Positions 8,237 to 42,299 of a DNA stretch of 64,000 bases are shown here, in pieces. The stretch is from an uncultured cyanobacterium. GTDB lineage: Bacteria; Cyanobacteriota; Cyanobacteriia; Cyanobacteriales; CAWCAG01. Numbering within the stretch: position 1 is the stretch's first letter; each line of letters starts with the position of its first letter. The stretch lies in NCBI GenBank assembly GCA_963803805.1, contig CAWDOD010000002.1:256001-320000 (forward strand), read 5' to 3'. Position numbers and translations under genes: made by a program. A model generated the notes under the pieces. That model was not told the origin of the DNA. It ran no database searches and saw only the letters and a program-made list of their open reading frames with translations.

Positions 8237-9754
8237 ATGGTTATGCAAGAAGAGCTAAATATTCTAATTCAAGCTCAATACCCCCTCATTTATCTCGTCA
8301 CTCCTGAAGAGGAGCGAGCTGAGCAAGCGATTAATAAAATTGCTCAGATGAGAACTCAACATCGGCGCGTCTTTATCTGGACGGTCACCCACGGTATTGT
8401 TGAGTATGGCAAGCCCCGCAATGTTACCCAACACAATACTGTTTCACCCGAAGCAGCAGTTGAATGGGTAGTTAGGCAAAAAGAACCAGGGATTTTTATC
8501 TTTAAAGACCTGCATCCTTTTATTGACGCTCCAGCCACAACCCGGTGGTTACGAGATGCGATCGCTAGTTTCAAAGGTACAGAAAAAATCATTATTCTTA
8601 TGTCTCCTGTTCAGGAGATTCCCATTGAACTAGAAAAGGAAGTAGTTGTTCTTGATTATCCCTTACCGGATTTGAGTGAACTTAATCAAGTCCTCAACCA
8701 ACAGCTAGAAAAAACCAAAAATCGTCGTACTACAACGGAAGTAAGGGAAAAGCTGCTGAAAGCAGCACTAGGACTAACACGAGATGAAGCGGAAAAAGTT
8801 TACCGTAAAGCTTGTGTTACAGCCGGAAAACTTACTGAAGAAGAAGTAGAAGTCATTCTCTCTGAGAAAAAGCAAATCATCCGACGTAATGGCATCTTGG
8901 AATATATGGAAGAAGATGAAACCATTGATTCTGTTGGGGGCTTAGAAGAGTTGAAGAAGTGGCTGAAGCAGCGCTCTAATGCCTTTACTGAAAGAGCAAG
9001 GGAGTACGGTTTGCCTCAACCTAAAGGAATGCTAATTCTTGGTGTACCTGGTTGTGGTAAGTCTCTAATTGCTAAAACCACCTCTCGTCTTTGGGGCTTA
9101 CCTCTGTTACGCCTGGATATGGGGCGCGTCTATGATGGGTCAATGGTAGGTCGTTCGGAAGCTAACTTACGCAATGCCCTTAAAACAGCCGAATCGATTT
9201 CTCCAGCAATTCTGTTTATTGATGAATTAGATAAATCCTTTGCTGGTGGTACAGGCTCTTCTGACTCTGATGGTGGTACATCCAGCCGTATTTTTGGTTC
9301 TTTCCTGACTTGGATGCAAGAAAAGACTTCTCCTGTCTTTGTGATGGCAACAGCCAACCGTATTGAGCGCTTACCAGGGGAATTCTTACGCAAAGGTCGC
9401 TTTGATGAAATTTTCTTCGTCGATCTGCCCAATGCAGAAGAGCGTATCGCTATATTTAAAATTCACCTGAGCAAACGTCGCCGAGATATAAACCGTTTCG
9501 ATCTCGAACAATTAGCTAAGGTTTCTGAAGGTTTTTCTGGAGCAGAAATAGAGCAAGGGCTTATAGCTGCGATGTATGAAGCATTCGCTCAAGATCGCGA
9601 ATTCACCCAGCTAGATATCATCGCCACGATTAAAGCAACCTTGCCTCTGTCTCGCACAATGACTGAGCAGGTCACGGCCCTACGGGATTGGGCTAGACAA
9701 AGAGCGCGGCCTGCAGCAGCCTCCGTAGCTGAATATCAGCGTATGGAGTTTTAA
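8237..9754 (+). CDS. ycf46: Ycf46-family AAA+ ATPase
   Basis: Walker A GVPGCGKS, Walker B ILFIDE, SRH LRKGRFDE; Ycf46-type N-terminal domain. Confidence 0.9.
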   Translation: MVMQEELNILIQAQYPLIYLVTPEEERAEQAINKIAQMRTQHRRVFIWTVTHGIVEYGKPRNVTQHNTVSPEAAVEWVVRQKEPGIFIFKDLHPFIDAPATTRWLRDAIASFKGTEKIIILMSPVQEIPIELEKEVVVLDYPLPDLSELNQVLNQQLEKTKNRRTTTEVREKLLKAALGLTRDEAEKVYRKACVTAGKLTEEEVEVILSEKKQIIRRNGILEYMEEDETIDSVGGLEELKKWLKQRSNAFTERAREYGLPQPKGMLILGVPGCGKSLIAKTTSRLWGLPLLRLDMGRVYDGSMVGRSEANLRNALKTAESISPAILFIDELDKSFAGGTGSSDSDGGTSSRIFGSFLTWMQEKTSPVFVMATANRIERLPGEFLRKGRFDEIFFVDLPNAEERIAIFKIHLSKRRRDINRFDLEQLAKVSEGFSGAEIEQGLIAAMYEAFAQDREFTQLDIIATIKATLPLSRTMTEQVTALRDWARQRARPAAASVAEYQRMEF

Positions 9755-9901: not shown

Positions 9902-10255
9902 ATGTCCCACTTTAGCACTCTGCGTACCAAAATTACTGAAGCTGAAATCCTTAAGACTTCTCTACGTGATTTAGGTATCAGCACTAAGACCGAAGCTGAT
10001 GTTCGCGGCTACAACGGTCAGCGCCTTCGTGCTGATATTGTTGCAGTCCTCGAAGGCGAGTATGATCTTGGTTGGTCACGTAACAGCGATGGCACCTTCG
10101 ATTTAATCGCTGATCTCTGGGGTGTTGCGAAAAAGCATAACCAAACCGAATTGATCAACTCCATCAATCAAAAGTATGCTGTTAACAAAACTTTAAATGA
10201 AGTTAAGCAGCGCGGTCTGCAAAACGCTAACGTTAAGTTAGTTGTTCAAAAATAG
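9902..10255 (+). CDS. ycf35: DUF1257 (Ycf35-like) protein
   Basis: MSHFSTLRT start, FDLIADLW, QKYA motifs; strong SD AGGAGG upstream. Confidence 0.85.
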   Translation: MSHFSTLRTKITEAEILKTSLRDLGISTKTEADVRGYNGQRLRADIVAVLEGEYDLGWSRNSDGTFDLIADLWGVAKKHNQTELINSINQKYAVNKTLNEVKQRGLQNANVKLVVQK

Positions 10256-15308: not shown

Positions 15309-17075
15309 ATGGTTAGCAATACATCTACCAATAAATCATCTTTGGGCAGTAAACCCCGCGACGTGAAAGTAGTTCCTATTGTCAGAGAGACAACTTTGTT
15401 GCGATCGCGGACTTGGGATAGATTGAAGTTTGAAATTGAATACGCTCTAGGAAAAGGGACAACGGCTAATTCTTATGTAATTCAAGGGGATAAGATTGCT
15501 GTTTTAGACCCTCCGGGGGAATCTTTCACTCCTATTTACTTAGAAGCCCTGCAAAGACACCTCGACCCCAAAACCATTGATTATGTAATTTTGGGTCATG
15601 TTAACCCCAACCGGGGGGCAACTCTCAAGGCGTTGTTAGAAATTGCGCCACAAATAACCTTTGTTTGTTCCAATCCTGGGGCGATCGCCTTAAGCAAAGT
15701 CTTAGAAAATCAGAAGTTAATCATTGATGTGATTAAAAAAGGAGATACCCTCGATTTAGGACAAGGGCATCACCTGGAATTTCTCCTCACCCCCACACCC
15801 CGTTGGCCCGATTCTCTGTGTACCTACGACCCCAAAACCTCTGTGCTTTATACAGATAAGTTTTTCGGTTCCCACGTTTGTGGTGATCAGGTTTTAGATG
15901 AAGGGTGGCAAGTTTATGCAGAAGATCGTCGCTACTATTTTGATAGTCTCATGGCTCCCTACGCTAAGCAAGTGGAGACAGCCTTAGAAAAATTTGCCAC
16001 CAAACCAGCTAAACTTTATGCTACAGGTCATGGCCCTTTGGTTAGGTATGGTTTCACGGAATTAACATCTCTTTATCAAGAGTGGGTGAAAAAGCAGCGT
16101 ACTCAAGATTTAAGTGTCGCCCTCCTCTACGCTTCTGCCTATGGGAATACCGCAACCTTGGCCCAGGCGATCGCTAATGGTATTACCAAAGCTGGGGTTG
16201 GGGTAGAGTCTCTTAATTGTGAATCAGCCGAACCAGAAGAAATTAAAGCCGCAGTAGAAAAGTCTGCTGGTTTTATCATGGGTTCCCCAACTTTAGGAGG
16301 TCATGCCCCAACCCAGGTGCAAACGGCATTAGGTATTGTGCTTTCCACCGCAGATAAAACTAAATTAGCGGGGGTATTTGGTTCCTTTGGTTGGAGTGGA
16401 GAAGCCATTGATTTATTGGAACAGAAATTCAAAGATGGCGGTTATCGCTTTGGTTTTGACCCCATTCGGGTGAAGTTTAAACCCACCGATGTTGTACTGA
16501 AAACCTGTGAGGAAGCAGGGACAGACTTTGCCCAAGCATTGAAAAAAGCCAGGAAACGGGCCGAAGCAGCAGCCAAGAAAACCGCCGGTAGCACTTCTCA
16601 ACAGGCAGATAGGACAGAACAAGCATTAGGTAGAGTTGTGGGTTCCCTTTGTGTGGTAACAACCAAACAAGGAGAGTTGCAAGGGGGAATGTTGGCTTCT
16701 TGGGTATCCCAAGCTACTTTTAATCCTCCCGGTTTAACCGTTGCTGTAGCCAAGGATCGGGCCATTGAATCTTTGTTGCATAGTGGCAATACTTTTGTCC
16801 TTAATATCCTTGCAGAAGGTGAACATTTAGGCATAATGAAGCATTTCCTTAAGCCCTTTGCCCCTGGGGAAGATCGTTTTGCTGATGTCGAGACTGAGGC
16901 GACGGAGAATGGTAATCCGATTCTCAAAGATGCTTTAGCTTATATTGAGTGTAGTGTGGAAAGTCGTATGGAATGTGGCGATCATTGGTTGATTTACGGA
17001 GTGGCGAAGGAAGGGAATTTACTTGGTGATGGGATTACGGCTGTACATCATCGTAAGTCGGGGAGTCATTATTAA
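15309..17075 (+). CDS. Class C flavodiiron protein (diflavin flavoprotein, Flv1/Flv2-type)
   Basis: Beta-lactamase-like domain with non-canonical GHVNPNR, flavodoxin domain (YASAYGNT), C-terminal flavin reductase (ASWVSQATF, GDHW). Confidence 0.92.
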   Translation: MVSNTSTNKSSLGSKPRDVKVVPIVRETTLLRSRTWDRLKFEIEYALGKGTTANSYVIQGDKIAVLDPPGESFTPIYLEALQRHLDPKTIDYVILGHVNPNRGATLKALLEIAPQITFVCSNPGAIALSKVLENQKLIIDVIKKGDTLDLGQGHHLEFLLTPTPRWPDSLCTYDPKTSVLYTDKFFGSHVCGDQVLDEGWQVYAEDRRYYFDSLMAPYAKQVETALEKFATKPAKLYATGHGPLVRYGFTELTSLYQEWVKKQRTQDLSVALLYASAYGNTATLAQAIANGITKAGVGVESLNCESAEPEEIKAAVEKSAGFIMGSPTLGGHAPTQVQTALGIVLSTADKTKLAGVFGSFGWSGEAIDLLEQKFKDGGYRFGFDPIRVKFKPTDVVLKTCEEAGTDFAQALKKARKRAEAAAKKTAGSTSQQADRTEQALGRVVGSLCVVTTKQGELQGGMLASWVSQATFNPPGLTVAVAKDRAIESLLHSGNTFVLNILAEGEHLGIMKHFLKPFAPGEDRFADVETEATENGNPILKDALAYIECSVESRMECGDHWLIYGVAKEGNLLGDGITAVHHRKSGSHY

Positions 17076-17221
17076 ACAATTTCACTTGGGAGCTTTACAC
17101 AATAGAGACGTAGTTTTTTCTCTCTACTATCCTCCGCACTTAAAGTAAAAAAAGCTACGGAAATGAGCCGCCTCAAGCTGAAAAGAGAAACTACAATAGC
17201 AACTAAGTAAAGCTTTCAATC

Positions 17222-18265
17222 GTGACTATGAAAAGAAAATATTTTTGGCTCACAATTGCCGTAAGCCTATTAGCCATAACCACCACGACAGCAAGTTTAG
17301 CTCAAACAGAAACAGAAGACTTTCGTTACTTTCGGGAATGGTGTGCTGCCAAAGATAGTCTTCCTACTCAAGCAAAACATACCGTAGATGTCTTACTCAA
17401 AGAAGCAGGAAGCCAAGATTGTTTAGAAGCTGAAGCGAATTTATACCGAAAGTCAGGTTTAGATATTGCCTATCTTGATGTGCCAGATTTACGCCCTCTT
17501 GCCGCTTTGACTAACCTAACTTTTTTAGACTTAGCTGGAAATGGTATTACTGACCTAAGCCCTCTATCAAACTTAAAGTCTTTAACTAAACTTGACCTTG
17601 ATTCTAATAGTATAAAAGACTTAACACCCTTAGCCAATTTAACTAATCTAACTGAACTTAATCTATCTTATAATCGTCTCCAAGACTTAACTCCTTTATC
17701 TGGCTTAACCAATTTAACCGAGCTTTATCTCTTTGGAAACAAAATTAAGGATTTGAAGCCGTTATCTAGCTTAACAAGTTTGACAATATTAGACCTTTTG
17801 AGCAACGACGAAATTGAAAGTTTGGAAGGTCTTTCAAACCTAACTCAATTAACTTACTTGAATCTTGCTAATAACCAAATTAAGGATTTAACTCCCCTAT
17901 CAACTCTAACTAATTTGACAGACCTTGATTTAGGTGGTAATCAGATAGAAGATTTAACTCCATTATCTTCTTTAACTAATTTACTTTCTCTATTTGCAGA
18001 CTCTAATCAAATCAAAGATGTAACACCTCTTGCTTCTCTTGAGAAACTGGATACTCTAATGTTGAGCCACAATCAAATTACTGATTTAACTCCTTTGTCC
18101 AACTTAGATAGCTTGAAAAGGCTTTACTTCAAAAATAATCAAGTTCAACAAATAACTAACGTGCTGGATCTTAACAAGTTAGACCGATTTTGCCCTGTGG
18201 ATAATCCTTTAACTGAAACTATTCCTGAACGCATACTTGACGATAAACAAGAATGCTTTTTTTGA
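17222..18265 (+). CDS. Secreted internalin-like leucine-rich repeat protein
   Basis: Signal peptide, Cys-containing N-cap, about ten 22-aa LxxLxxLxLxxNxIxDLxPL repeats. Confidence 0.9.
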   Translation: MTMKRKYFWLTIAVSLLAITTTTASLAQTETEDFRYFREWCAAKDSLPTQAKHTVDVLLKEAGSQDCLEAEANLYRKSGLDIAYLDVPDLRPLAALTNLTFLDLAGNGITDLSPLSNLKSLTKLDLDSNSIKDLTPLANLTNLTELNLSYNRLQDLTPLSGLTNLTELYLFGNKIKDLKPLSSLTSLTILDLLSNDEIESLEGLSNLTQLTYLNLANNQIKDLTPLSTLTNLTDLDLGGNQIEDLTPLSSLTNLLSLFADSNQIKDVTPLASLEKLDTLMLSHNQITDLTPLSNLDSLKRLYFKNNQVQQITNVLDLNKLDRFCPVDNPLTETIPERILDDKQECFF

Positions 18266-18321
18266 GGAACTTTACTTATTGGCTGACTTAAAATTGACTT
18301 AAAATCAAAGCCAGAACAAGC

Positions 18322-20148
18322 TTAGTAAGCACTTCCTAGTAACTCAAAAGCTGACCAATAGTAAGGATGTTCAAAATTTTGATCCTGAATTGATAGGTTA
18401 TTAGGTAAAAGCTGGGCAATTAGTTTCGGATTTGGCTCTTCTGCTGATGCTTTAGGTCGATATATAAGGGAGTTACTCTTAATTTTAACTCTTTGTTCTA
18501 TCATAGCTAACTGAGCTTCCTGTAAGATTTGCGCTCTTGTTAATCCTCTCTGCTCAGAAAGAATCCGGTAGAAGGTTCTCATCATAGCCATTGTTCCCTC
18601 GTCACTTACTCTCCATAAAGAACCAATAGCTGATTCAGTACCTTGTGACCACATAGCCCCACCAAGACCAAACTCTCTGTCTTTGGCTAGATTGGAAGAT
18701 GAACCAGAATTATTATCTACTAAAGATTCACAAGCACTAAAAACAACCATTTCTATTGCTGAAAAGTCAAGTTCTATAAGTTCTTGAATATTTATCTCTC
18801 CTTGCCTTGTACTTAGATTAATATGATCTCCTCCTTTAGCCTCTCCGTGGGTAGCAATATGTAAAATTTGGCTGGCGACTTCTTCACCTAAGCCTAGTTT
18901 GAGGGCTTCCTGAACTTTCTCCCCCCCTTGAGGATGCTGTTGTACTGCTTGCCCTAAAATATCCTGAATGCGATTGAGACGAGGCAATAAACTTCCTAAT
19001 TGGGCTTGTATATTTGGTTCAACTTCTTGTTCTTGAAGATATTTTTTCAAATTAGCTAGATTAAATAAATACTCTTTCGGTATAGTTATACCCTCAAGAT
19101 TATTAATATGCATCACCTCTGGAAGCACAAAAGGCAAAGGAGCAGGACCATTAAAGGTTGTTTCTCCTAAAGCTGTAATTTCCGGACTCTCTTGATTAAG
19201 AGGAGTTGTTTGGGTCATGGAGAAACTAGGAGATACGGAGAGGCTGAAGCGTTCAATCAAGAATTCATGCTCATTGGATAATGCTGATACAGGCATAGTT
19301 TGTAACTCTTGGTCTAGCACTAAATGGAGATGATTGACTCCTATGTTGCTTAAGGTTTTTTCAATTGGTTTAATCATCGCCGTATACAATAGTTGTGCCG
19401 GCCCTTCAAATGCTGTTCGCCGACTGGAGTTTGTTGCTGTTGCTCTGAAGTTTATTAATCGCTTCTGCAAATCTCTCCAATCAATAGGCTTAAACCGATG
19501 AATAGGAGGGTACTGAGGATCACCAGGAATAACTACAATATCTATACCCTGTTCCGCACCTTCTTCGTTTTGTACCATCAAATAAATAATTGCTGACTTC
19601 ATGCCTGTTGCTTGATCTGCGGCATGGATTCTCTGCTGCATCGAAGCCATTGTTTCTGGATCGTTAGCAATTTCTTGATTATTGAATTCCTTAATCCTTT
19701 GCAGCTCAAACTGTTCTACTGTTTCACTAACTTCTTCGGCTGATTCACTAATTGTACGGGGAGCAAAGGGGTCGTTAACGGTATCTTCTTGCTGTCGCTG
19801 TAATGCCGCAGTTGCCCTTCGCTGTACCATAGATGCTAAATTATCAGCAATTAATTCTTCTCTCCTCTCATTTTGGGGGGCATAAACCCCTTGGTAAGAA
19901 AAGTTACCAGATTCAGTATAAGCTTCGGGCTTGGCTTGTATTCCCTGATCTGGGGCGGCTTCAGACAAATTAACTAGATGATCTCCAAGACGTTCAGCAT
20001 TTGCCCGACTAATCTCCATTTCCTCTAAAGTTTGTCCAACTTTCTGGGGCTGAGGTGCAGGTGCATAACTTGGTTGTGGGAAACTTGAACCTTGAGGTAG
20101 CTTAGCTGGCTGAAAATTAGGCTTTTTGATCCTTTCGTAACTTGCCAT
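18322..20148 (-). CDS. CHAT-domain (caspase-like) protease with eCIS/DUF4157-like N-terminal leader
   Basis: ILHIATHG and VFSACES dyad motifs, GSLWRVSDEGT, HPYYWSAFELLG C-terminus. Confidence 0.88.
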   Translation of the reverse strand: MASYERIKKPNFQPAKLPQGSSFPQPSYAPAPQPQKVGQTLEEMEISRANAERLGDHLVNLSEAAPDQGIQAKPEAYTESGNFSYQGVYAPQNERREELIADNLASMVQRRATAALQRQQEDTVNDPFAPRTISESAEEVSETVEQFELQRIKEFNNQEIANDPETMASMQQRIHAADQATGMKSAIIYLMVQNEEGAEQGIDIVVIPGDPQYPPIHRFKPIDWRDLQKRLINFRATATNSSRRTAFEGPAQLLYTAMIKPIEKTLSNIGVNHLHLVLDQELQTMPVSALSNEHEFLIERFSLSVSPSFSMTQTTPLNQESPEITALGETTFNGPAPLPFVLPEVMHINNLEGITIPKEYLFNLANLKKYLQEQEVEPNIQAQLGSLLPRLNRIQDILGQAVQQHPQGGEKVQEALKLGLGEEVASQILHIATHGEAKGGDHINLSTRQGEINIQELIELDFSAIEMVVFSACESLVDNNSGSSSNLAKDREFGLGGAMWSQGTESAIGSLWRVSDEGTMAMMRTFYRILSEQRGLTRAQILQEAQLAMIEQRVKIKSNSLIYRPKASAEEPNPKLIAQLLPNNLSIQDQNFEHPYYWSAFELLGSAY

Positions 20149-20356
20149 AATTAACCCCTAGAGATTTCGTCGAGTGTTAAGCAGCTAATACTATTTGTTA
20201 TTAAACATCATTAACCTCATCAAGGGGCAAACTTAAAGCCTTAGCTACTTGCTCCGGTGTCAAACCCATTTTTAGTAACCAAGGTTCAATCGAGTAATGC
20301 CCTCGTTCATTTAGAGAACTGCAACAAATAAAATATCCTCACAAAGTATAAGATTT

Positions 20357-20524
20357 TAGCAACTAGCGACTAGCCATTAGCCATTAGCTTAAGAATCTGG
20401 TAGCTGAGTATGGTCAGGGAAAGGGGGTGGCAGTATTGTAGGTTCCAAACTTTGAGTCATAACCGTTGAAGAGAAGGAGTTACTCTCATTTTACTCCCTT
20501 ACCCTTTACCCTTTACCCTTTACC
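20357..20524. repeat. Heptamer short tandem repeats (TAGCCAT/TAGCAAC-type and TTACCCT-type)
   Basis: tagcaactagcgactagccattagccattagc at about 20357 and (ttaccct)n at about 20498-20524; similar arrays at about 36181, 43074-43122, 43554 and 52441. Confidence 0.75.
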
Positions 20525-20532
20525 AGTCCACC

Positions 20533-21579
20533 CTACAACTGAACTGGACTTAGCCAACCTCGTAGGAAGTAGAATAAAGAACTGAGATACTCTTCAACTA
20601 CTCGCGTTGTGGTTACTAAAGCCTCCGCAGAGGGTAGAAAATCACTTAGTCTAATTCGCCTTTGAGGAGTTTGTTCACCGCTTTCAAAAGTGTAAAAATC
20701 TGTAGGACGAGGTAAAACATTCAAGCCTTCTCGTTCAAAAGTTAACTGGGCGCGGCGGATATTAATCCCCGATGATACTAAAATAATTGGTTGACCAGCT
20801 AATCCTCGCTGACTGAGAATATCCTTAACTGATAAAGCACTACTACGTAAATTGCCCCCTCCGTTATTAGGGACAATTTGACTAGCAGGAACACCATATT
20901 TTTGCAGCAAAATAGAAATATCCCTGGCTTCATCAACAGTTTGTTCGTCTCCTTTTAAATTACTCCTGGGACCAGCACTAACAATAACAATAGGAGTACT
21001 ACCCAAACTACGTTGTTGTCGATATAAATCTGCTGCATAGAGAATGCGATCGCCACTTTCAGTAAGCTGAATTTGGGTACGATAGGGAAGATTAGCTTGG
21101 GTTGTCCCTTCCCCTAAAAGAACAATGGCTTCAGCCCGCTGTTGTCCTGTGGGAGTGACGCTACCTCTGGGACCTAAAGCTTCCTGCCTTCTTTGTTCTA
21201 CTGTGATGGCATCTCTTTCTGCTAGTTGAGCCATTTGATAGGCAAACACAGGCAAACTAGAAAGAAGTAAGACAATAAAAGCCGCCCAGATAAAATAAGG
21301 CTTAGGGGATTTAATATCACCACCAAACTTAATAGGTGCTATACCCAAAAGTAGTAACAAAAGAGTTAAACCTATTGGTTTTAAAGGAATAGAAAGTATT
21401 GTCCAAGCGGTAGAAATAAGACCATCTTGAGGATTCAAAAAAGCCAGAAAAATTAGGGCTATAAAAGCTAAGCCCCCAAAAATAGTCAGAAATTTATTGG
21501 GAATCAGCTTGATCAGTAAATAGTAAATAGCAAAGCCAACTAGCAGCCAAAGAAAAACCCGTGTCAGTAGTAGGAACAT
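20533..21579 (-). CDS. YdcF/DUF218 family membrane protein
   Basis: N-terminal TM helices, AIVLLG, DRILYAADLY, ILVSS...RRA, PTDF, EYL motifs. Confidence 0.8.
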   Translation of the reverse strand: MFLLLTRVFLWLLVGFAIYYLLIKLIPNKFLTIFGGLAFIALIFLAFLNPQDGLISTAWTILSIPLKPIGLTLLLLLLGIAPIKFGGDIKSPKPYFIWAAFIVLLLSSLPVFAYQMAQLAERDAITVEQRRQEALGPRGSVTPTGQQRAEAIVLLGEGTTQANLPYRTQIQLTESGDRILYAADLYRQQRSLGSTPIVIVSAGPRSNLKGDEQTVDEARDISILLQKYGVPASQIVPNNGGGNLRSSALSVKDILSQRGLAGQPIILVSSGINIRRAQLTFEREGLNVLPRPTDFYTFESGEQTPQRRIRLSDFLPSAEALVTTTRVVEEYLSSLFYFLRGWLSPVQL

Positions 21580-35287: not shown

Positions 35288-35434
35288 TTAAGAAAGCTTG
35301 CCAATCTCTACAACCCAGCGTCGGCGCTCAGAATGTTCCAGAAGTAAGATATCCTCTAAAGACCAGTGGAAATGCAAAGCAATAAAGGCTACCTCTTGGT
35401 ACAACTCATCCAAGGGGTAGCCAAGGATTCCCCC
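35288..35434 (-). CDS. DUF6760-like small ORF without ATG; probable -1 frameshift extension of the upstream tail assembly chaperone
   Basis: Manual translation GGILGYPLDELYQEVAFIALHFHWSLEDILLLEHSERRRWVVEIGKLS*; overlaps 35389-35748 in the -1 frame at GGGGGAA. Confidence 0.8.
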   Translation of the reverse strand, partial: GGILGYPLDELYQEVAFIALHFHWSLEDILLLEHSERRRWVVEIGKLS

Positions 35435-35748
35435 GACGGATCTATTACCTCCTCTATAAGGTTGAGGCGTTGATAAAAGTCTTGTAAATAAGCAAAGTCT
35501 ACCAAGAATAGCTTTTGTAACGTTTCTGGAGTAACAGCACTAAACTGACCTAAAGAAGTGATTACCCTTGATAAAGCGATAAAAACCCGCTCTTCTTCGT
35601 AATTAGCTTCGCGGTATTTTTGGACAAAAATTTCATCTTTTCCTGTAGCAGGGCGCATTTTTCCGTGGCGATGGACAACTCCCTGCTCATCTACAAAACC
35701 TTTAGGTAGAGTGAAGGGAAATTCAGTATAGGACATATCAATTATCAC
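35389..35748 (-). CDS. eCIS/phage tail assembly chaperone, paralogue 2
   Basis: TEFPFTLPKGFVD...HRHGKMRPAT..DE...SRVITSLG...DFAYLQDFY; paralogous to the upstream gene. Confidence 0.8.
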   Translation of the reverse strand: MIIDMSYTEFPFTLPKGFVDEQGVVHRHGKMRPATGKDEIFVQKYREANYEEERVFIALSRVITSLGQFSAVTPETLQKLFLVDFAYLQDFYQRLNLIEEVIDPSGESLATPWMSCTKR

Positions 35749-35798
35749 ATTGAGAATTAAACATTAATCATTAATCATTTTCCTAATTAGATTAATAT

Positions 35799-36137
35799 CT
35801 ATTCCACATTTTCCTTGGCTTTAACTTCTTTGGGTTGCTCATTTTCTAACTCCAAACCATTAATTTGGCGATAGAATTTTTGTAAATAGTTGAGGTCGCA
35901 AGCAAAAAAGCCTTCGATTACTGCTGGACTTATATCATCTAAAGCACCCAAGCGGGTTATAACCCTAGCAAGAATCAACACTGTAGCATAGGCTGGATTT
36001 GATTTAACGCGGGGATCGCGCATCGGTGTAATTTCATCCATCGCCCGCGAAAGACGCATCACCCCTTTGCGGTGGAGATTTCCTTCTGTGTCAATGTAAC
36101 CTTTTGGTAAAGTAAATTCAAATTCAGTTTGCAGCAT
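35799..36137 (-). CDS. eCIS/phage tail assembly chaperone, paralogue 1
   Basis: TEFEFTLPKGYID...HRKGVMRL...DPRV..NPAY...DLNYLQKFY; follows the tube genes. Confidence 0.82.
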   Translation of the reverse strand: MLQTEFEFTLPKGYIDTEGNLHRKGVMRLSRAMDEITPMRDPRVKSNPAYATVLILARVITRLGALDDISPAVIEGFFACDLNYLQKFYRQINGLELENEQPKEVKAKENVE

Positions 36138-36216
36138 TTATAGTAATTTTTTCATCATGAGGAAGTAGAATAACAAGACAATTAGCCATTAGCAATTAGC
36201 TGTTAGCCAAATAAGG

Positions 36217-36702
36217 CTATTTAACCCTTATAAAATGATCCACAGCTAATTCTACTTCTTCAACCTCAAACTCATTGTTACCGGCTTTAACATCTCCTAT
36301 TTTGTAACCTACAGGCCAAGCACCTTGGAAACGAAATCTGGCTCTTTCAATTGCACCTTGATCATAAATTGTCAAGTCCCCATCTTTCCTTTGCTTACTC
36401 CACTCTCCCTCTTCCACGGCTTGAAACCACTTCCACATAGTTGTCGAAACCGTTAAACCTCGCTTCAGAGTAATATTCTCGCTTTTGCTGTTACCGGGAA
36501 GTTTAGTACGAACAACCTTACCGTTTTTAGCTCCACCCTTGCCCCATTTTTGGGGAGTAACTTCGCAAATCTCAATTACCTCTTGGCTACGCTTAAATCC
36601 TTGACACTCCATAAAATAAGCATCAATAGGATTTTTCGACCCATCTAATTTTAATTCCAGGTAAAAGCGGGCGCTACTAAGGATTTCAAATTGTTCTGCC
36701 AT
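36217..36702 (-). CDS. CIS inner tube protein (T4 gp19-like, Afp1/5 family)
   Basis: FMECQG, KLPG, NITLKRG, WKW, AWPVGY, EEVELA. Confidence 0.9.
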   Translation of the reverse strand: MAEQFEILSSARFYLELKLDGSKNPIDAYFMECQGFKRSQEVIEICEVTPQKWGKGGAKNGKVVRTKLPGNSKSENITLKRGLTVSTTMWKWFQAVEEGEWSKQRKDGDLTIYDQGAIERARFRFQGAWPVGYKIGDVKAGNNEFEVEEVELAVDHFIRVK

Positions 36703-36773
36703 GGTGTACTCCTACAACTGAGCAAGACAGGAAGAAAGTTAAACTCTTACCATTCTTCCTGTTTGCCCTGAAC

Positions 36774-37247
36774 TTACTTAACCCGATGTAAGTTTTCGTA
36801 AACAATTTCAACAGTTTCTGTACCCAATTCCGTAGCACCTGCTTCTAACTTAGATGACTTGTAACTTGCAGGCATCGCTCCGGTAAAATTCCAACGGGCG
36901 GCTTCTTCTCCAGCTTGGTTATAGAGAATAATTGAGCCTGTTTTTCTTTCTCCTTTACTGCTTGTACCACCACCAGCAATAGGTTCAGAATGGGAGTCTT
37001 CATACCATTGCATCAATCTATTATCTTCAACAGTATCCACATACTCTATAGTTATTTTGCCATTTTCCACCCCGGTAACAGTAGCCTGCATTTGGCTTTT
37101 GCCTCCCTTAGTAACACCAAAAGCTTTGGTATCCCCAGCAGTTTGTAATTTAACTTCTATACCACTAACCTTTTTGACGATTAGATCATCTAAGCCATCT
37201 AGCTGAGCATAAAACTTAGAACAAGCAAGAATTTCACCAGCAGCCAT
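36774..37247 (-). CDS. CIS inner tube protein (gp19-like)
   Basis: RKTGSIILYNQAGEEAARWNFTGAMPASY...ETVEIVYE. Confidence 0.85.
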   Translation of the reverse strand: MAAGEILACSKFYAQLDGLDDLIVKKVSGIEVKLQTAGDTKAFGVTKGGKSQMQATVTGVENGKITIEYVDTVEDNRLMQWYEDSHSEPIAGGGTSSKGERKTGSIILYNQAGEEAARWNFTGAMPASYKSSKLEAGATELGTETVEIVYENLHRVK

Positions 37248-37298
37248 AGTTAAACTCCAAAATTTAGTTCAATAACAATAATTCAATAACTTCAGTGA

Positions 37299-37772
37299 CT
37301 ATTTCACACGATTAACTTGTTCGCAGAGTACAGTAAAAGTTTCCTTACAAAGGTCTTTACTATCTGCGGCGAAGTCATTGACTTTATAGGTTTTAATCCA
37401 GATATTGACAAGATTCCAGCGCAAAACTTCGTTATCTTCACTGTCATAACCAACAATGGAACCATTTTTACGGTTTTCACGCCACTTACCGTCGCCACCT
37501 TCGCTCTTGGGCATGGTGGCCTTCAACCAGTTATACCAATCCTGATCGCCTTCACAAAGATAAGTTTCGATGGTTACATCAGGGTTTTCTTCAAATCCTG
37601 CTGAGGTGGTTTGCCATAGAGTCTTACCATCTTTAGTAGAAGCTAGTGGTTTTTCGTGACCGGCGGTTTGTCCTGTAAAAGTTACCTCTTGGACGCTAGC
37701 AACTAGTTTATCTGTCAAGCCATCTACTTCCCAGTAAAATCGACTAGTTGGGGTTGGTCTTAATTCTGTCAT
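37299..37772 (-). CDS. CIS inner tube protein (gp19-like)
   Basis: RKNGSIVGYDSEDNEVLRWNLVNIW...ETFTV; first gene after the sheath. Confidence 0.85.
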   Translation of the reverse strand: MTELRPTPTSRFYWEVDGLTDKLVASVQEVTFTGQTAGHEKPLASTKDGKTLWQTTSAGFEENPDVTIETYLCEGDQDWYNWLKATMPKSEGGDGKWRENRKNGSIVGYDSEDNEVLRWNLVNIWIKTYKVNDFAADSKDLCKETFTVLCEQVNRVK

Positions 37773-37888
37773 TGTTTAACTCCTAAATCTGCAACAAAAT
37801 TAATAGTTTTCTTTTGCTTAGTTGGAACAGAAGAAGGGCGACTCTTGAAAATTTTTGGGTCGCTCTTCTCCATTTTAGATCCTAATGA

Positions 37889-39604
37889 TTACTGGTTGGG
37901 GGCCCATTGGCTAACGCGGAAAATGACAAATTCGGCCGGACGTACAGGACAAACACCAACTTCTACATAAAGGCGACCCATCATCATGGTTTCTGGGGTA
38001 TTGAGAGTGCCGTCACACTTGACATAAAAAGATTCGGCAGGGGAAGCACCAAATAGCGCTCCTTCGCGCCACAAACGCTCTAGGAATGTACCAACGGTAC
38101 GCTTTACCCTTTCCCAAAGATCCATATCATTAGGTTCAAAAACAACCCATTGAGTACCAATCTCAATGGACTTTTCAATGTAGCTAATCAAGCGACGTAC
38201 ACTGATATAGCGCCATTGAATATTATCAGGTTCAACCAGAGTACGAGCGCCCCAAACTTTGTAGCCTCGATTGTAGTTAGCAAAGTTACGGATACAGTTA
38301 ATCCCCATGGGGTTGAGAAGTTCTTGTTCCCGCATATTGGTTTCGTAGGCTAAACCAATGACTCCCCTGGGGGTGTCATTAGCTGGGGCTTTGAAAATAC
38401 CACGGTTTTGGTCAGTGCGACACCAAATTCCCATCATATGACCACAAGGGGGGATACTAATGGGTCTTCCTGCATTGCGAGGGTTGGGAACTTTGATCCA
38501 GGGGTAGTATAAGGCGCCAAACATAGAACGGCGGTTAAAGGCTTTTAACCACTCAGCTATGTGTTGGGGTCTTTGTTCTTCAGGCTTGACAGCTTGGTTC
38601 TCATTCTTACCCATCTTAACAGGGGGGGGATCTAACACCACCATGCGGTAAGGAGGGCCAGGGAAGGAGTTCTCGCAGAGACTAACCATCATCTCCATGA
38701 CCCCATGTACCTGATCTAAGTCCAGCAAATTGTCTTGGTAGGCCCGCATCAGGTCAGGACAGGCTATCATAGCTACTTCGTCTACTTCAAACAGCCCTTG
38801 CATCCCTTGGCGTTCGTCCCGGCTACCGGTTACATCCCTGGTTAAGCGATCAGGAGGCGCAATGTAAGGAGGGGGGGCAACTTCATAGGTTCCATTGGCA
38901 GGCCGTCGAGAGATGGCAGATTGTCCAGTGATGGAGATGTCAGCAACGCTTACATACTCAGAAGCTTCCATAACTGCAACAGCATAATCTGCTACGGCTG
39001 TTTCTACTTCTGGGTTCATGGTGAGGTTATCGTAGCGCTCTAATTCTTCGTTACCACTTCTGACTACTACATTGAAGAATTCCCCAGTATTGATTGGGGA
39101 TTCTGCGTCTTCCGGGGCATCATCGGGTAGGGGTTTAGGTGTGCTTTCTTCTACATAAACCCGGATGCGTCCATCAGCAGAAGGTAAGGCCAGTTGACTA
39201 TTTTCTCCTTCTGGCATTTTCAAATTGAATGCTAAAGAAGGTTTGCCCCCAGGAGTAAGCATTTTCGTTGCCGTTTCTTCTGGTGCTGGGGCTTCGGAAC
39301 CAGGTAATTTTGTACCGATACTTGTTACCCAACAACGTCCTCCCCCATTCAAAAACCAACCTTGGACAGCGAAAGGAAGATAGGCATCAAAATCTGTAAA
39401 ACCATCAGAACCCGGTTTAGCAAAATACTCCCTAAACTGATCGAAGTTGGTAACCATCATTGGCTTAAACAATTCTGCGTCGCCCCGGACATCTTCGGTA
39501 AAACCGATAAATCCTGCTACGCTCATACTTAACCCTTCAATCGGGCGACTGCCCCGGTCTACTTCTTCAACGTAGACCCCAGGAGCGAAATAATCCAATG
39601 CCAT
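37889..39604 (-). CDS. CIS contractile sheath protein (Afp2/3/4, phage tail sheath family)
   Basis: APGVYVEEV, ALYYPWIKV, PPCGH, KAPAN, WGARTL, WRYISVRRL, WVVFEPND, PVRPAEFVIFR. Confidence 0.96.
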   Translation of the reverse strand: MALDYFAPGVYVEEVDRGSRPIEGLSMSVAGFIGFTEDVRGDAELFKPMMVTNFDQFREYFAKPGSDGFTDFDAYLPFAVQGWFLNGGGRCWVTSIGTKLPGSEAPAPEETATKMLTPGGKPSLAFNLKMPEGENSQLALPSADGRIRVYVEESTPKPLPDDAPEDAESPINTGEFFNVVVRSGNEELERYDNLTMNPEVETAVADYAVAVMEASEYVSVADISITGQSAISRRPANGTYEVAPPPYIAPPDRLTRDVTGSRDERQGMQGLFEVDEVAMIACPDLMRAYQDNLLDLDQVHGVMEMMVSLCENSFPGPPYRMVVLDPPPVKMGKNENQAVKPEEQRPQHIAEWLKAFNRRSMFGALYYPWIKVPNPRNAGRPISIPPCGHMMGIWCRTDQNRGIFKAPANDTPRGVIGLAYETNMREQELLNPMGINCIRNFANYNRGYKVWGARTLVEPDNIQWRYISVRRLISYIEKSIEIGTQWVVFEPNDMDLWERVKRTVGTFLERLWREGALFGASPAESFYVKCDGTLNTPETMMMGRLYVEVGVCPVRPAEFVIFRVSQWAPNQ

Positions 39605-39863: not shown

Positions 39864-40198
39864 TAGCTATATTTTGAGGAATTGGCAAAAGTATTAATTT
39901 TTTCTAACTATTAAGCAATTGTGATCCTAACTTAGGTTAGTTTCAAAAGTAAAAAGTAACTTAAAATATACGCTGATTAATCTTGATCCTTACACCAACA
40001 AGAGCAAGTACAGCAAAGAATTAGGAAATCAAGGTAGCATCTGGGTACAAAACTTAGTCAAATGGTGGGGCGCAATTTTCTTTTCCTCTATCGCGCTTAG
40101 GAAAAAATCAGGAAAAGTCAAGAGAAAGTTTGAAGTTAAAAAGACAAAAAACATTTTTCTTGATAACTTCTTCGCAAAAGAGTTTTAGGGGCAATTTT

Positions 40199-40894
40199 AT
40201 GATGACTACTGCAACCCAGTCAATCTCAATTTTGTTAGTGGATGACCAACCTCTATTCCGCCAGGGGCTGCGTACTTTGCTAAATTTTTATGGCGAAAGT
40301 GGTTCTTTGCAATTTAATATTGTTGGTGAAGGGGCTACGGTAGAACAAGCTGTTAAACTTACGGTGCAACAAAATCCTTCCTTGATATTATTAGATTTAG
40401 AATTAGCTCATGGTAGCGGTATTCATGCCCTGCTACGTTTAAGAGAGTTATCCTATAAAGGAAGAGTATTAGTTCTTTCTGCCCACAGGGAAGACGAATG
40501 GGTCTTTAAAGCTATGCAAGCAGGAGCAAAAGGCTATGTATTTAAGGATTACCTAGCTAGTCAACTTTGTGAAGCAATTTCTACAGTAATGAGGGATGAG
40601 GTCTATTTAGCCCCAGAGGTAGCTACCAGCTTTTTTAGAATGTTTCACTTCTATGCAGGCAATTCTTTTAAAACGGCTTCCAACCTCAACTTAACTGAAA
40701 GAGAACAAGAAGTCCTACATTGGCTAGTGCAGGGTTCTTCAAATGACCAAATTGCCCGTAAACTGCACGTTACAGTAGCTACAGTCAAAGCTCATTTAAC
40801 TTCTATTTTTGATAAATTAAGTGTAAGAAGTCGAACCCAAGCAATTATTAAAGCGTTAAAACTAGGGCTAGTAGGGGCAACTATCGTACCCTAG
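40199..40894 (+). CDS. NarL/LuxR-family DNA-binding response regulator
   Basis: REC domain (LVDD, LLDL, SA, K) plus LTEREQEVL...TVKAHL HTH; likely start ATG 40199/40202 (ORF track begins at TTG 40130). Confidence 0.92.
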   Translation: MMTTATQSISILLVDDQPLFRQGLRTLLNFYGESGSLQFNIVGEGATVEQAVKLTVQQNPSLILLDLELAHGSGIHALLRLRELSYKGRVLVLSAHREDEWVFKAMQAGAKGYVFKDYLASQLCEAISTVMRDEVYLAPEVATSFFRMFHFYAGNSFKTASNLNLTEREQEVLHWLVQGSSNDQIARKLHVTVATVKAHLTSIFDKLSVRSRTQAIIKALKLGLVGATIVP

Positions 40895-41000
40895 TGCTTT
40901 GTCCTATATTTTAAGGAAGTGATGAAGAGAATAAAACTATTCCCTATTCCTTACTCTCTGGGCGAAGGCCCTTTGCCCCCACTCCCCACTCCCTTCTAAA

Positions 41001-42299
41001 ATGAGTAATTATCTAGCAATTGCCACCGTAACTGCTGTTTTACAGAGAACCTTAATCAAGGCAATAGAAGCAGATATAGAGGGTGTAAGAGTAACTACCA
41101 ACCGTCCTGATAACCCTGGCGGTGGCATACCAGAAACCAGAGTTAATCTTTATCTTTATCAAGCCGAACTCAATGAAGTGTGGCGCAATAGTGCCAACAT
41201 GAGAGCAAACCGTAATCGTCAAGGAGAGTCTGCTAAGCAAAATCGTACCGCTTTCGATCTGCACTATATGATTAGCTTTTACGGTAACGATGCGGAATTA
41301 AAGCCCCAGCGTCTTATGGGAAGTGCAATACAAGCTCTTACAGATAAACCCATTATTACCACAGACATGATCAAAGGTGCTACTGATGATTCTAGCTTTG
41401 CTTATTTAGCGGAAAATACTCTCATTGAACAGGTAGAACAAATCAAATTTATACCCTTAGATTTATCGGTAGAGGATTTATCTAAAATTTGGTCAATATT
41501 TTTTCAAACTCCCTATACTTTATCTATTGCCTATCGTGTTACGGCAGTAGTTATTGAAGGACATAAACCTGCTCAAAAATCTTTGCCTGTTACAGACCGC
41601 AGTACTGGGGGCATAGCACCTTTTCCTAACCAGCCTATTATTGAAAGTATCGAATCAGAAGTCGGTAGATTTGAACCAATTTTAGCAAGTAGTATCTTAA
41701 CGATTAAAGGACAAAATTTGCAAGGTCAAATCACTCAGGTTTTAGTGGGGAATTTTGAAGCGACACCAACAGAGGTAAATGACACTGAAGTAAAATTTGA
41801 TCTTGGTTTCTTACCTAGCCCCGCTTTAAAAGTAGGAGTACAGAGTTTGCAAATAATTCATCGTTTTAACCCTGGTCAAGTTCCCCAAATTATTACTCCT
41901 CAAACTAAGTCTATGACTGTTGTAGAGTCTAATGTCATGCCTTTTGTAGTACGTCCTAGTATCAAAGAAATTAAGGTAGAAAATTTACAAGGTCGTCGTG
42001 ATGAATCCCGTTCTGGAGATTTAGTTATTCAAACCGATGTCTCCATTGCTAAAGAACAGCGCATACTTATATCTCTAAATGAGTGGTCAACCGATGATCC
42101 AGCAACTTATATGTTTAAAAGTCCCCACTCTCGTTCTGGAGATACTCAAACTATCACTGTGCCAATTAATCAAGTTCAAGCAGGACAATATTTAGTTCGC
42201 CTCCATGTTGATGGGGCAGAAAGTCCTTTAGAAAGAGATACAGACCCCGATAGTCCTACCTTTAATTGGTATGTTAGACCTAAAGTTTTAATTGCTTAA
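41001..42299 (+). CDS. DUF4255/Pvc16-like CIS terminator (cap) protein with C-terminal Ig-like (IPT/TIG-like) domains
   Basis: MSNYLAIATVT, RVNLYLYQ, DLHYMISF, LSKIWS, SIAYRVTAVVIE; YLVRLHVDGAES C-terminal repeat. Confidence 0.85.
   Translation: MSNYLAIATVTAVLQRTLIKAIEADIEGVRVTTNRPDNPGGGIPETRVNLYLYQAELNEVWRNSANMRANRNRQGESAKQNRTAFDLHYMISFYGNDAELKPQRLMGSAIQALTDKPIITTDMIKGATDDSSFAYLAENTLIEQVEQIKFIPLDLSVEDLSKIWSIFFQTPYTLSIAYRVTAVVIEGHKPAQKSLPVTDRSTGGIAPFPNQPIIESIESEVGRFEPILASSILTIKGQNLQGQITQVLVGNFEATPTEVNDTEVKFDLGFLPSPALKVGVQSLQIIHRFNPGQVPQIITPQTKSMTVVESNVMPFVVRPSIKEIKVENLQGRRDESRSGDLVIQTDVSIAKEQRILISLNEWSTDDPATYMFKSPHSRSGDTQTITVPINQVQAGQYLVRLHVDGAESPLERDTDPDSPTFNWYVRPKVLIA

Follow-up and report, generated by a model that had tools for sequence, protein, structure and literature searches.

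A CHAT protease gene with a genus-specific leader and a DUF4157 remnant: candidate cargo of a dispersed cyanobacterial contractile injection system

The window analysed here is a stretch of 64,000 nucleotides from an uncultured cyanobacterium (assembly GCA_963803805.1, contig CAWDOD010000002.1, positions 256,001 to 320,000). It contains, on the minus strand, a gene for a caspase-like protease of the CHAT type, which may well be a cargo of the contractile injection system (CIS) encoded in the same genome. This genome (G000) comprises 5.3 Mb in 11 contigs and is 97.4% complete; G001 denotes a congeneric genome, and contigs are labelled C2, C4, C5, C8, C9 etc. within each genome. The open reading frame (ORF) of the protease is intact, with 608 codons starting at ATG, and its motifs lie where the first-pass annotation of the DNA had described them: SRANAERLGDHL at amino acids (aa) 47–58, GIQAK at aa 69–73, AYTES...MVQR at aa 76–110 with DNLAS inside it (aa 102–106), ATHG at aa 432–435 and SACE at aa 471–474. 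The protein consists of a leader, a vestige of the DUF4157 (eCIS_core) domain, an acidic linker and the protease unit (Table 1).

The leader is common to a family of proteins. A local hidden Markov model (HMM) of it was run with filters off on all 23,450 stop-to-stop ORFs of at least 50 aa in G000. It found the leader on exactly eight ORFs (E ≤ 3e-21; next match 0.16), in each case at the N-terminus, so that the genome search for leader sharers proposed in the first-pass annotation did reveal a family. In a tblastn search with aa 1–130, residues 1–76 match seven other places of the genome with 52–72% local identity, and the identity of the leader to its paralogues is 35–57%. An intact DUF4157 domain (Pfam PF13699) is present in three of the eight leader ORFs (C8:145173, C8:142585 and C2:919965) and an eroded remnant in C2:1031381 and C2:1002957; C8:130749 and C2:380091 carry no DUF4157 at all, and the CHAT gene completes the set. 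The leader gene C2:1002957–1003640 has an in-frame TAG after about 30 codons and is likely to be a pseudogene. Tightly behind three other leader genes (C8:142600–144965, C2:919992–922915 and C2:1031390–1033367) lie co-directional ORFs for 198, 153 and 327 aa, at gaps of −4, 47 and 13 bp, which are candidate immunity genes; of these, the 198-aa ORF at least matches no Pfam family.

No family of Pfam or NCBIfam matches the N-terminus of the CHAT protein. Among 2,862 long ORFs of G000, aa 1–75 rank at the 2.5th percentile of hydrophobicity and in the top 0.2% for disorder-promoting residues; no hydrophobic signal-like segment is present, in agreement with the earlier reading that the protein has no signal peptide. 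In the AlphaFold2 model the predicted local distance difference test (pLDDT) score is below 50 at aa 1–41 and 52–141, that is, over nearly all of aa 1–160, with short low-confidence helices at aa 41–61 and 94–119. An intact paralogue with leader and DUF4157 is modelled similarly, with aa 1–170 at low confidence and the DUF4157 fold at aa 171–263 with pLDDT 82–90. The leader is thus hydrophilic and probably disordered.

A word-index search of a collection of 5.8 billion proteins with the leader profile returned 24 proteins, 10 of them with PF13699, all from G000 or from records labelled ‘Spirulinaceae cyanobacterium’. When 1.84 billion representatives were scanned in full with HMMER, 18 matches came out at E ≤ 0.001, of which 15 were true N-terminal leaders, five of them new; the other three (P0079, P0080 and P0082) were discarded, since in these SDR, fn3 and MBG repeat proteins the match is internal and recurs. 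The public databases thereby hold 29 leader proteins in total, and 11 of the 29 have PF13699. The payloads behind the leader that Pfam can name are CHAT, Peptidase_C2 (P0072, calpain-like), Peptidase_M91 ‘Effector protein’ (P0075) and Peptidase_M15_4 (P0081), the remaining proteins having payloads that match no Pfam family. P0068 ends in the same C-terminal domain as the DUF4157-bearing C8:142585, yet lacks DUF4157. Among 41 related genomes the leader occurs in two only, at eight places in G000 and 15 in G001, and on this distribution it is genus-specific. Both of these genomes hold a CIS sheath gene; leader homologues in genomes lacking a CIS, which would have spoken against the earlier proposal, were not found among these 41. 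Two further DUF4157 groups of G000 have other N-termini: three tandem short-type ORFs at C3:198062–201870 with variable C-termini, which form a second, separate family, and the proteins at C2:205131 and C3:165504, which share yet another N-terminus.

The match to DUF4157 is colinear with the domain and lies directly behind the leader. The Pfam model PF13699 (gathering score 22 bits) detects nothing at E ≤ 10 on the whole protein, nor at E ≤ 0.01 on aa 1–250 or aa 1–130, and the genome-wide PF13699 search does not list the CHAT ORF. More closely related sequences do find it. By tblastn, aa 64–119 align with the C-terminal half of four true DUF4157 domains of G000 (E 0.0017, 0.0036, 0.086 and 0.23). 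A lineage HMM made from 12 DUF4157 domains and run, filters off, on the same 23,450 ORFs ranks the CHAT ORF immediately below the genuine DUF4157 members (E 0.02, 15.6 bits; aa 70–109 align with model positions 46–84 of 85). When the post-leader segment of three CHAT homologues is compared with six DUF4157 domains by hhalign, the probability is 83% and P is 8.7e-6 over 21 columns. The profile check suggested in the first-pass annotation is therefore negative with the Pfam model and positive with the lineage profiles. On the basis of these alignments aa 76–110 does descend from the C-terminal half of DUF4157, in degenerate form; the resemblance is beyond chance but weak. The remnant maps to the strands at 227–236 and the helix at 246–263 of the modelled fold of an intact paralogue; the N-terminal half is absent, and with it a complete domain of about 79 positions. 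As had been noticed before, the position of the HExxH motif reads DNLAS, so that the zinc-binding motif is gone. The wider claim, that the leader itself derives from DUF4157, needs correction: the N-terminus does share ancestry with those of true DUF4157 proteins of the same genome, but the conserved element common to them is the stretch of about 73 aa upstream, not the remnant.

Full-length relatives have one IQAK-type motif that closes the leader and a second that precedes the last DUF4157 hairpin, whereas in the CHAT gene a single IQAK is followed directly by this last hairpin and the former HExxH helix. The two motifs have evidently merged into one, as the first-pass annotation had supposed. 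However, a single IQAK-to-IQAK deletion was rejected as the whole story, because the G001 homologue C5:299321–301048 still has a degenerate EQEAD-type segment between two IQAK-type motifs but is without the helix kept in G000; this argues for stepwise erosion. Since G001 keeps the EQEAD segment and G000 the helix, the N-terminal half of DUF4157 must have been lost long ago, with further decay in each lineage, and the IQAK-to-IQAK merger, as read from these sequences, is a second step, in G000.

The protease part is well preserved. Pfam CHAT (PF12770) covers aa 250–605 with E 1.5e-43 and 149.8 bits against a cut-off of 24 (model positions 3–288 of 289) and is the only significant family on the whole protein; no TPR family is found, as had been stated earlier. 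All 31 CHAT proteins of an alignment share H430, H434, G435 and C473, and the His434 (ATHG)/Cys473 (SACE) dyad pointed out in the first reading is retained together with 12 invariant CHAT positions. AlphaFold2, run on the 31-protein alignment, predicts a confident fold for aa 165–608 (pLDDT mostly 85–96). A Foldseek comparison of this fold with the PDB finds the TPR-CHAT protein Csx29 (E 1.4e-13), separase, DdvA, SAVED-CHAT and gingipains, and a sequence search of the PDB with the whole protein gives no match at E ≤ 1. An intact dyad and a confidently modelled CHAT fold, with no sensor domain, indicate a regular and apparently active CHAT unit.

Only three close homologues of the CHAT protein are known to us: P0002 (66% identity), P0003 (57%) and the G001 C5 copy, which hardly differs from P0003. 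The leaders of the G000 and G001 C5 proteins are 37% identical and belong to different subtypes, while their folds agree at 64.5%, which suggests that modules have been shuffled. The other matches of a search among proteins of similar length are TPR-CHAT proteins with about 25% identity. In the related genomes the best matches to the catalytic half are giant ORFs of 2,610–3,822 aa (27–29% identity over about 440 aa), and three of the four giants examined begin with a two-partner secretion (TPS) domain, PF05860. A maximum-likelihood tree of 33 rows was computed with three leader-CHAT proteins, four giants and 26 TPR-type or other matches, omitting P0003 (a near-duplicate of the G001 C5 copy), P0016, P0021, P0022, P0029, P0033–P0040 and P0042–P0053. 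In this tree the leader-CHAT clade, on a long branch, is sister to the giants with support 92/94 (not starred). As it groups with the C-terminal CHAT of the giants and not with TPR-CHAT, this type of CHAT serves as a terminal module of exported proteins. In one relative (G006) a gene for a 2,650-aa TPS-...-CHAT exoprotein (L041:1816–9768, minus strand) is followed by two DUF928 genes; its distance from the CIS tube genes of that genome is about 4.7 kb and from the sheath gene 5.9 kb (L041:14447–17816), possibly by coincidence. We found no literature linking CHAT with cyanobacteria and hemagglutinin/DUF928.

These relationships bear on where the protease would act. The best structural matches, Csx29, separase, the anti-sigma factor DdvA and SAVED-CHAT, are intracellular regulated proteases, which would fit an enzyme that works inside its producer, either by processing cargo in trans, in place of the lost DUF4157 metallopeptidase, or in stress-induced death or ghost-cell formation; the leader would then serve to tether it to the CIS. 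In Anabaena, firing of the CIS is confined to lysis, and the authors of that study connect the system with ghost-cell formation and programmed cell death (PMC8894136); also, no co-directional immunity ORF adjoins the CHAT gene. These two points agree with action in the producer. On the other hand, the protein has no sensor or regulatory domain, its CHAT occupies the C-terminal ‘payload’ position like other enzymes in the sibling proteins, and its nearest CHAT relatives are C-terminal modules of secreted giants. Moreover, the leucine-rich repeat (LRR) protein whose gene travels with the CHAT gene has a signal-peptide-like segment and would sit outside the cytoplasm, pointing to action there. 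An intracellular role is therefore decidedly unlikely in our view.

The first-pass annotation had placed the CIS about 15 kb away from the CHAT gene. This holds for the sheath, tube and terminator genes: the nearest CIS gene starts at 35389, 15.2 kb and 15 ORFs away, and Pfam recognizes Phage_T4_gp19 three times, Phage_sheath_1 and Phage_sheath_1C in the sheath–tube part. Only this module is that near; the baseplate and spike are encoded on another contig, with gp25, Baseplate_J and Tail_P2_I at C4 343.7–347.6 kb (L024:7753–11649) and CIS_tube, a VgrG-like spike and PAAR at C4 523.3–526.3 kb (L025:11308–14308). G000 has one sheath gene, and its CIS is split over at least three distant loci; tape measure and fibre genes were not identified in this genome. 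A sheath homologue occurs in 15 of the 41 relatives, that of G001 being 97% identical, and PF13699 proteins were present in all five relatives tested. The GerE-type response regulator gene at 40130–40894 (+) adjoins the sheath and terminator genes, and another GerE regulator gene, with a HisKA_3 kinase gene, is divergent from the leader gene C8:130749 (L026:6639–8557); GerE regulators are eCIS-associated according to one survey of extracellular contractile injection systems (eCIS; PMC8213781). The AAA gene at 8237–9754 (+), next to a DUF1257 gene at 9902–10255 (+), was considered as the loading ATPase of the CIS and rejected: it is found in 41 of 41 relatives at 78–99% identity, with or without a sheath, and is thus a core cyanobacterial gene.

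Table 1. Position of the CHAT gene, its parts and the features discussed with it in the window
Feature	Residues	Position in window	Strand	Basis or remark
Gene of leader/DUF4157-vestige/CHAT protein	608 aa	18322..20148	−	ORF list, Pfam CHAT
N-terminal leader	aa 1–73	19930..20148	−	Ends in IQAK motif; predicted core helix at about aa 41–61
Vestige of C-terminal half of DUF4157/eCIS_core	aa 76–110	19819..19923	−	Last beta-hairpin and ex-HExxH helix
Acidic linker	aa 111–164	19657..19818	−	pLDDT <55; 60% identity to G001 paralogue
Folded CHAT protease unit (predicted)	aa 165–608	18325..19656	−	pLDDT ~85–96
Catalytic histidine	His434	18847–18849	−	
Catalytic cysteine	Cys473	18730–18732	−	
LRR protein gene		17222..18265	+	Convergent to CHAT gene, 56 bp apart; Pfam LRR_4 E 3e-61
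CIS sheath–tube module: TAC-like ORF, 112-aa ORF, three gp19-type tube genes, sheath		35389..39604	−	Pfam
GerE-type response regulator and Pvc16_N (tail terminator) genes		40130..42299	+	Response_reg + GerE; Pvc16_N E 8.8e-43

We consider it reasonably probable that the CHAT protein is a cargo (effector) of the single CIS of this genome, with the leader as its loading signal and DUF4157 as a dispensable vestige. In this model the leader of about 73 aa would be a system-specific loading sequence that brings the protein into the CIS tube, as it may do for the polymorphic set of toxin-like proteins that it heads in this genus; the DUF4157 vestige behind it, reduced to the last hairpin and helix and devoid of the zinc ligands, would be non-functional; and the payload, a sensor-less caspase-like cysteine protease, would cleave target proteins after delivery. 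The argument is chiefly that the protein shares its N-terminal tag with a toxin-like, CIS-linked family. According to one survey, 36% of the toxins associated with eCIS contain DUF4157, compared with 0.06% of other proteins (PMC11297309), and another survey gives the domain an odds ratio of 2614 for eCIS operons (PMC8213781). Mass spectrometry of Anabaena CIS preparations detected Alr3311 and Alr3312, two proteins with DUF4157 (PMC8894136). In AlgoCIS, the cargos Cgo1 and Cgo2 fill the tube, both having a disordered N-terminal domain followed by DUF4157, and the toxicity of Cgo1 is independent of HExxH (PMC8894135). Loading in that system needs the N-terminal domain and not DUF4157, and such domains are described as resembling one another among the cargos of a system while differing from system to system (preprint 10.64898/2026.05.27.728243). 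The repeated loss of DUF4157 behind the leader (in the CHAT gene, P0068, C2:1031381 and C2:1002957) fits these deletion data.

Several observations weigh against a cargo role. The connexion between leader and CIS runs through the association of DUF4157 with such systems and through analogy with AlgoCIS and with the Photorhabdus virulence cassettes (PVC), and the Pfam PF13699 model is blind to the remnant in the CHAT protein. With 15 ORFs and 15.2 kb between it and the nearest CIS gene, the CHAT gene falls outside the ten-gene neighbourhood that, according to one survey, holds 88% of known eCIS toxins (PMC11297309), and none of the eight leader genes of G000 is an immediate neighbour of a CIS structural gene. 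No CIS-type AAA+ ATPase was identified in G000, and the CHAT gene, unlike three other leader genes, has no co-directional downstream ORF resembling an immunity gene. Leader and sheath co-occur in both leader genomes, but since 13 of the 15 sheath-positive relatives lack the leader and the two genomes are close kin, this co-occurrence is a weak test. Finally, G001 has only a wreck of the CHAT gene at the syntenic locus (see below), which implies that the gene is dispensable in that species.

Some of these points would equally suit a polymorphic toxin family that uses a route other than a CIS, such as an unrecognised secretion system or release by lysis, its link with DUF4157 being historical. 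The genus restriction of the leader (2/41 genomes) against the wide occurrence of the sheath (15/41) and the fact that no leader gene adjoins a CIS structural gene agree with this, and the nearest CHAT relatives use two-partner secretion, so that delivery routes evidently get swapped. However, the leader has no hydrophobic signal-like segment, eCIS_core stands directly behind it in 3 of 8 members in the own genome and 11 of 29 in the databases, and no type VI secretion system (T6SS) sheath is found in G000 (no VipB match in a genome 97.4% complete). A disordered N-terminus, an optional DUF4157 and a variable C-terminus are, besides, the layout of the experimentally loaded AlgoCIS cargos. Export by another route thus seems to us rather unlikely, and delivery by the CIS is retained as the preferred reading.

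The CHAT gene had been called an orphan, which is not quite so, because an LRR gene travels with it. The LRR protein has a signal-peptide-like hydrophobic segment at its N-terminus, as read from the translation, and an LRR gene stands beside a CHAT copy in three loci: in G000, at G001 C5 (L047:1714–3563) and beside a remnant at G001 C9 (L045:1140–1811). At G001 C5 the intact CHAT gene lies next to GlmU and is convergent with two tandem LRR genes, 66–68% identical to that of the window. Further LRR paralogues are numerous, with matches in 25 of 41 genomes, and none exceeds 52% identity. The association is suggestive of a partner or immunity protein of the CHAT protein, although LRR paralogues are common.

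The G001 C9 locus, syntenic with the window (PPK2, DUF218, ...), has kept a CHAT remnant of 126 codons only (L045:1553–1933, minus strand), in which two large deletions have joined leader aa 18–58 to CHAT aa 272–356; nothing is left of the catalytic half, and the convergent LRR gene has lost its 3' part. This pseudogene, the extensive deletion of DUF4157 with loss of HExxH, and the TAG codon that interrupts one sibling leader gene of G000 raise the question of whether the gene in the window is a decaying relic of a DUF4157 toxin without present function. We regard this as very improbable, given that its frame of 608 codons is intact, that it has retained the catalytic dyad along with 12 invariant CHAT positions, that the model of its folded part reaches a pLDDT of about 90, that the leader core is conserved, and that intact homologues exist at 57–66% identity (G001 C5, P0002 and P0003).

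The window is of cyanobacterial content, including genes for a flavodiiron protein, OCP, FRP, a KaiB-like protein and Crr6, with a G+C content of about 40%. A promoter and terminator scan of positions 17000–20700 gave three promoter-like sites against 7.0 expected, and no terminators. Among the public sequencing runs listed as containing the stretch in whole or in part there are three DNA runs from one study and no RNA run.

If the cargo reading is correct, a caspase-like protease would be added to the known CIS payloads as a new class, with a vestigial eCIS_core. The genus would then offer a natural counterpart to the AlgoCIS deletion experiments: it keeps the leader while DUF4157 has been lost or eroded at least four times, which argues that the leader, rather than the ‘eCIS core’, is under selection. 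Because CIS and cargo genes are dispersed in this genome, the leader profile would find cargo genes that neighbourhood-based predictors miss. A bolder version, which we put forward as improbable, holds that the CIS delivers the protease as the effector of an effector/immunity pair, in which the secreted LRR protein is the immunity protein or inhibitor, and that the leader alone is a sequence-defined loading signal listing all cargos of the scattered CIS. Were the protease–LRR pair real, cyanobacterial CIS, already linked to ghost-cell formation, would be tied to caspase-like killing of neighbours or kin.

A literature search for a link between the CHAT domain and contractile injection found none, nor did a looser search among the 12 best-ranked of its 707 matches; the main texts of two surveys of eCIS toxins (PMC11297309, PMC8213781) contain neither ‘CHAT’ nor ‘caspase’, and their supplementary tables may list such proteins. 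In protease fold and His/Cys dyad the protein resembles Csx29 (Craspase), separase and SAVED-CHAT (Foldseek E 1.4e-13 to 1e-4). It differs from them in having no TPR, SAVED or other sensor, at about 12–15% identity; NCBIfam Csx29 gives a partial match only (E 6e-4, 18.7 bits against a cut-off of 300), and no cas genes or CRISPR context are found among the ORFs of the window. The giant TPS-...-CHAT exoproteins (2,610–3,822 aa) have the closest CHAT modules, likewise at the C-terminus, but they start with a PF05860 TPS domain followed by thousands of repeat residues, where the CHAT protein has a 73-aa leader and no PF05860.

Among injection systems, the tCIS of Anabaena is, by its published description, alike in being a cyanobacterial CIS with DUF4157 proteins, Alr3311 and Alr3312 (PMC8894136). 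Its effector genes abut a contiguous cluster of 15 ORFs, whereas the CIS genes of G000 are scattered; the main text of that paper reports no CHAT domain and mentions no CIS ATPase. The PVC payloads Pdp1 and Pnf are unrelated in sequence, and their loading depends on the Pvc15 ATPase, of which no counterpart was found in G000; they resemble the present protein in that, as described, a disordered N-terminal signal without DUF4157 directs loading (10.64898/2026.05.27.728243; PMC11495950; 10.1101/2023.08.15.553202). The AlgoCIS cargos of Algoriphagus machipongonensis have leaders with no sequence similarity to that of G000, in which no Alg15-like ATPase was identified; the G000 protein further differs from them in its CHAT payload, in a DUF4157 that has shrunk to about 35 residues, and in a gene position outside the CIS cluster. 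Cgo1 and Cgo2 are nevertheless comparable in plan, with a disordered N-terminal domain, common to the cargos of one system, followed by DUF4157 and a variable C-terminus.

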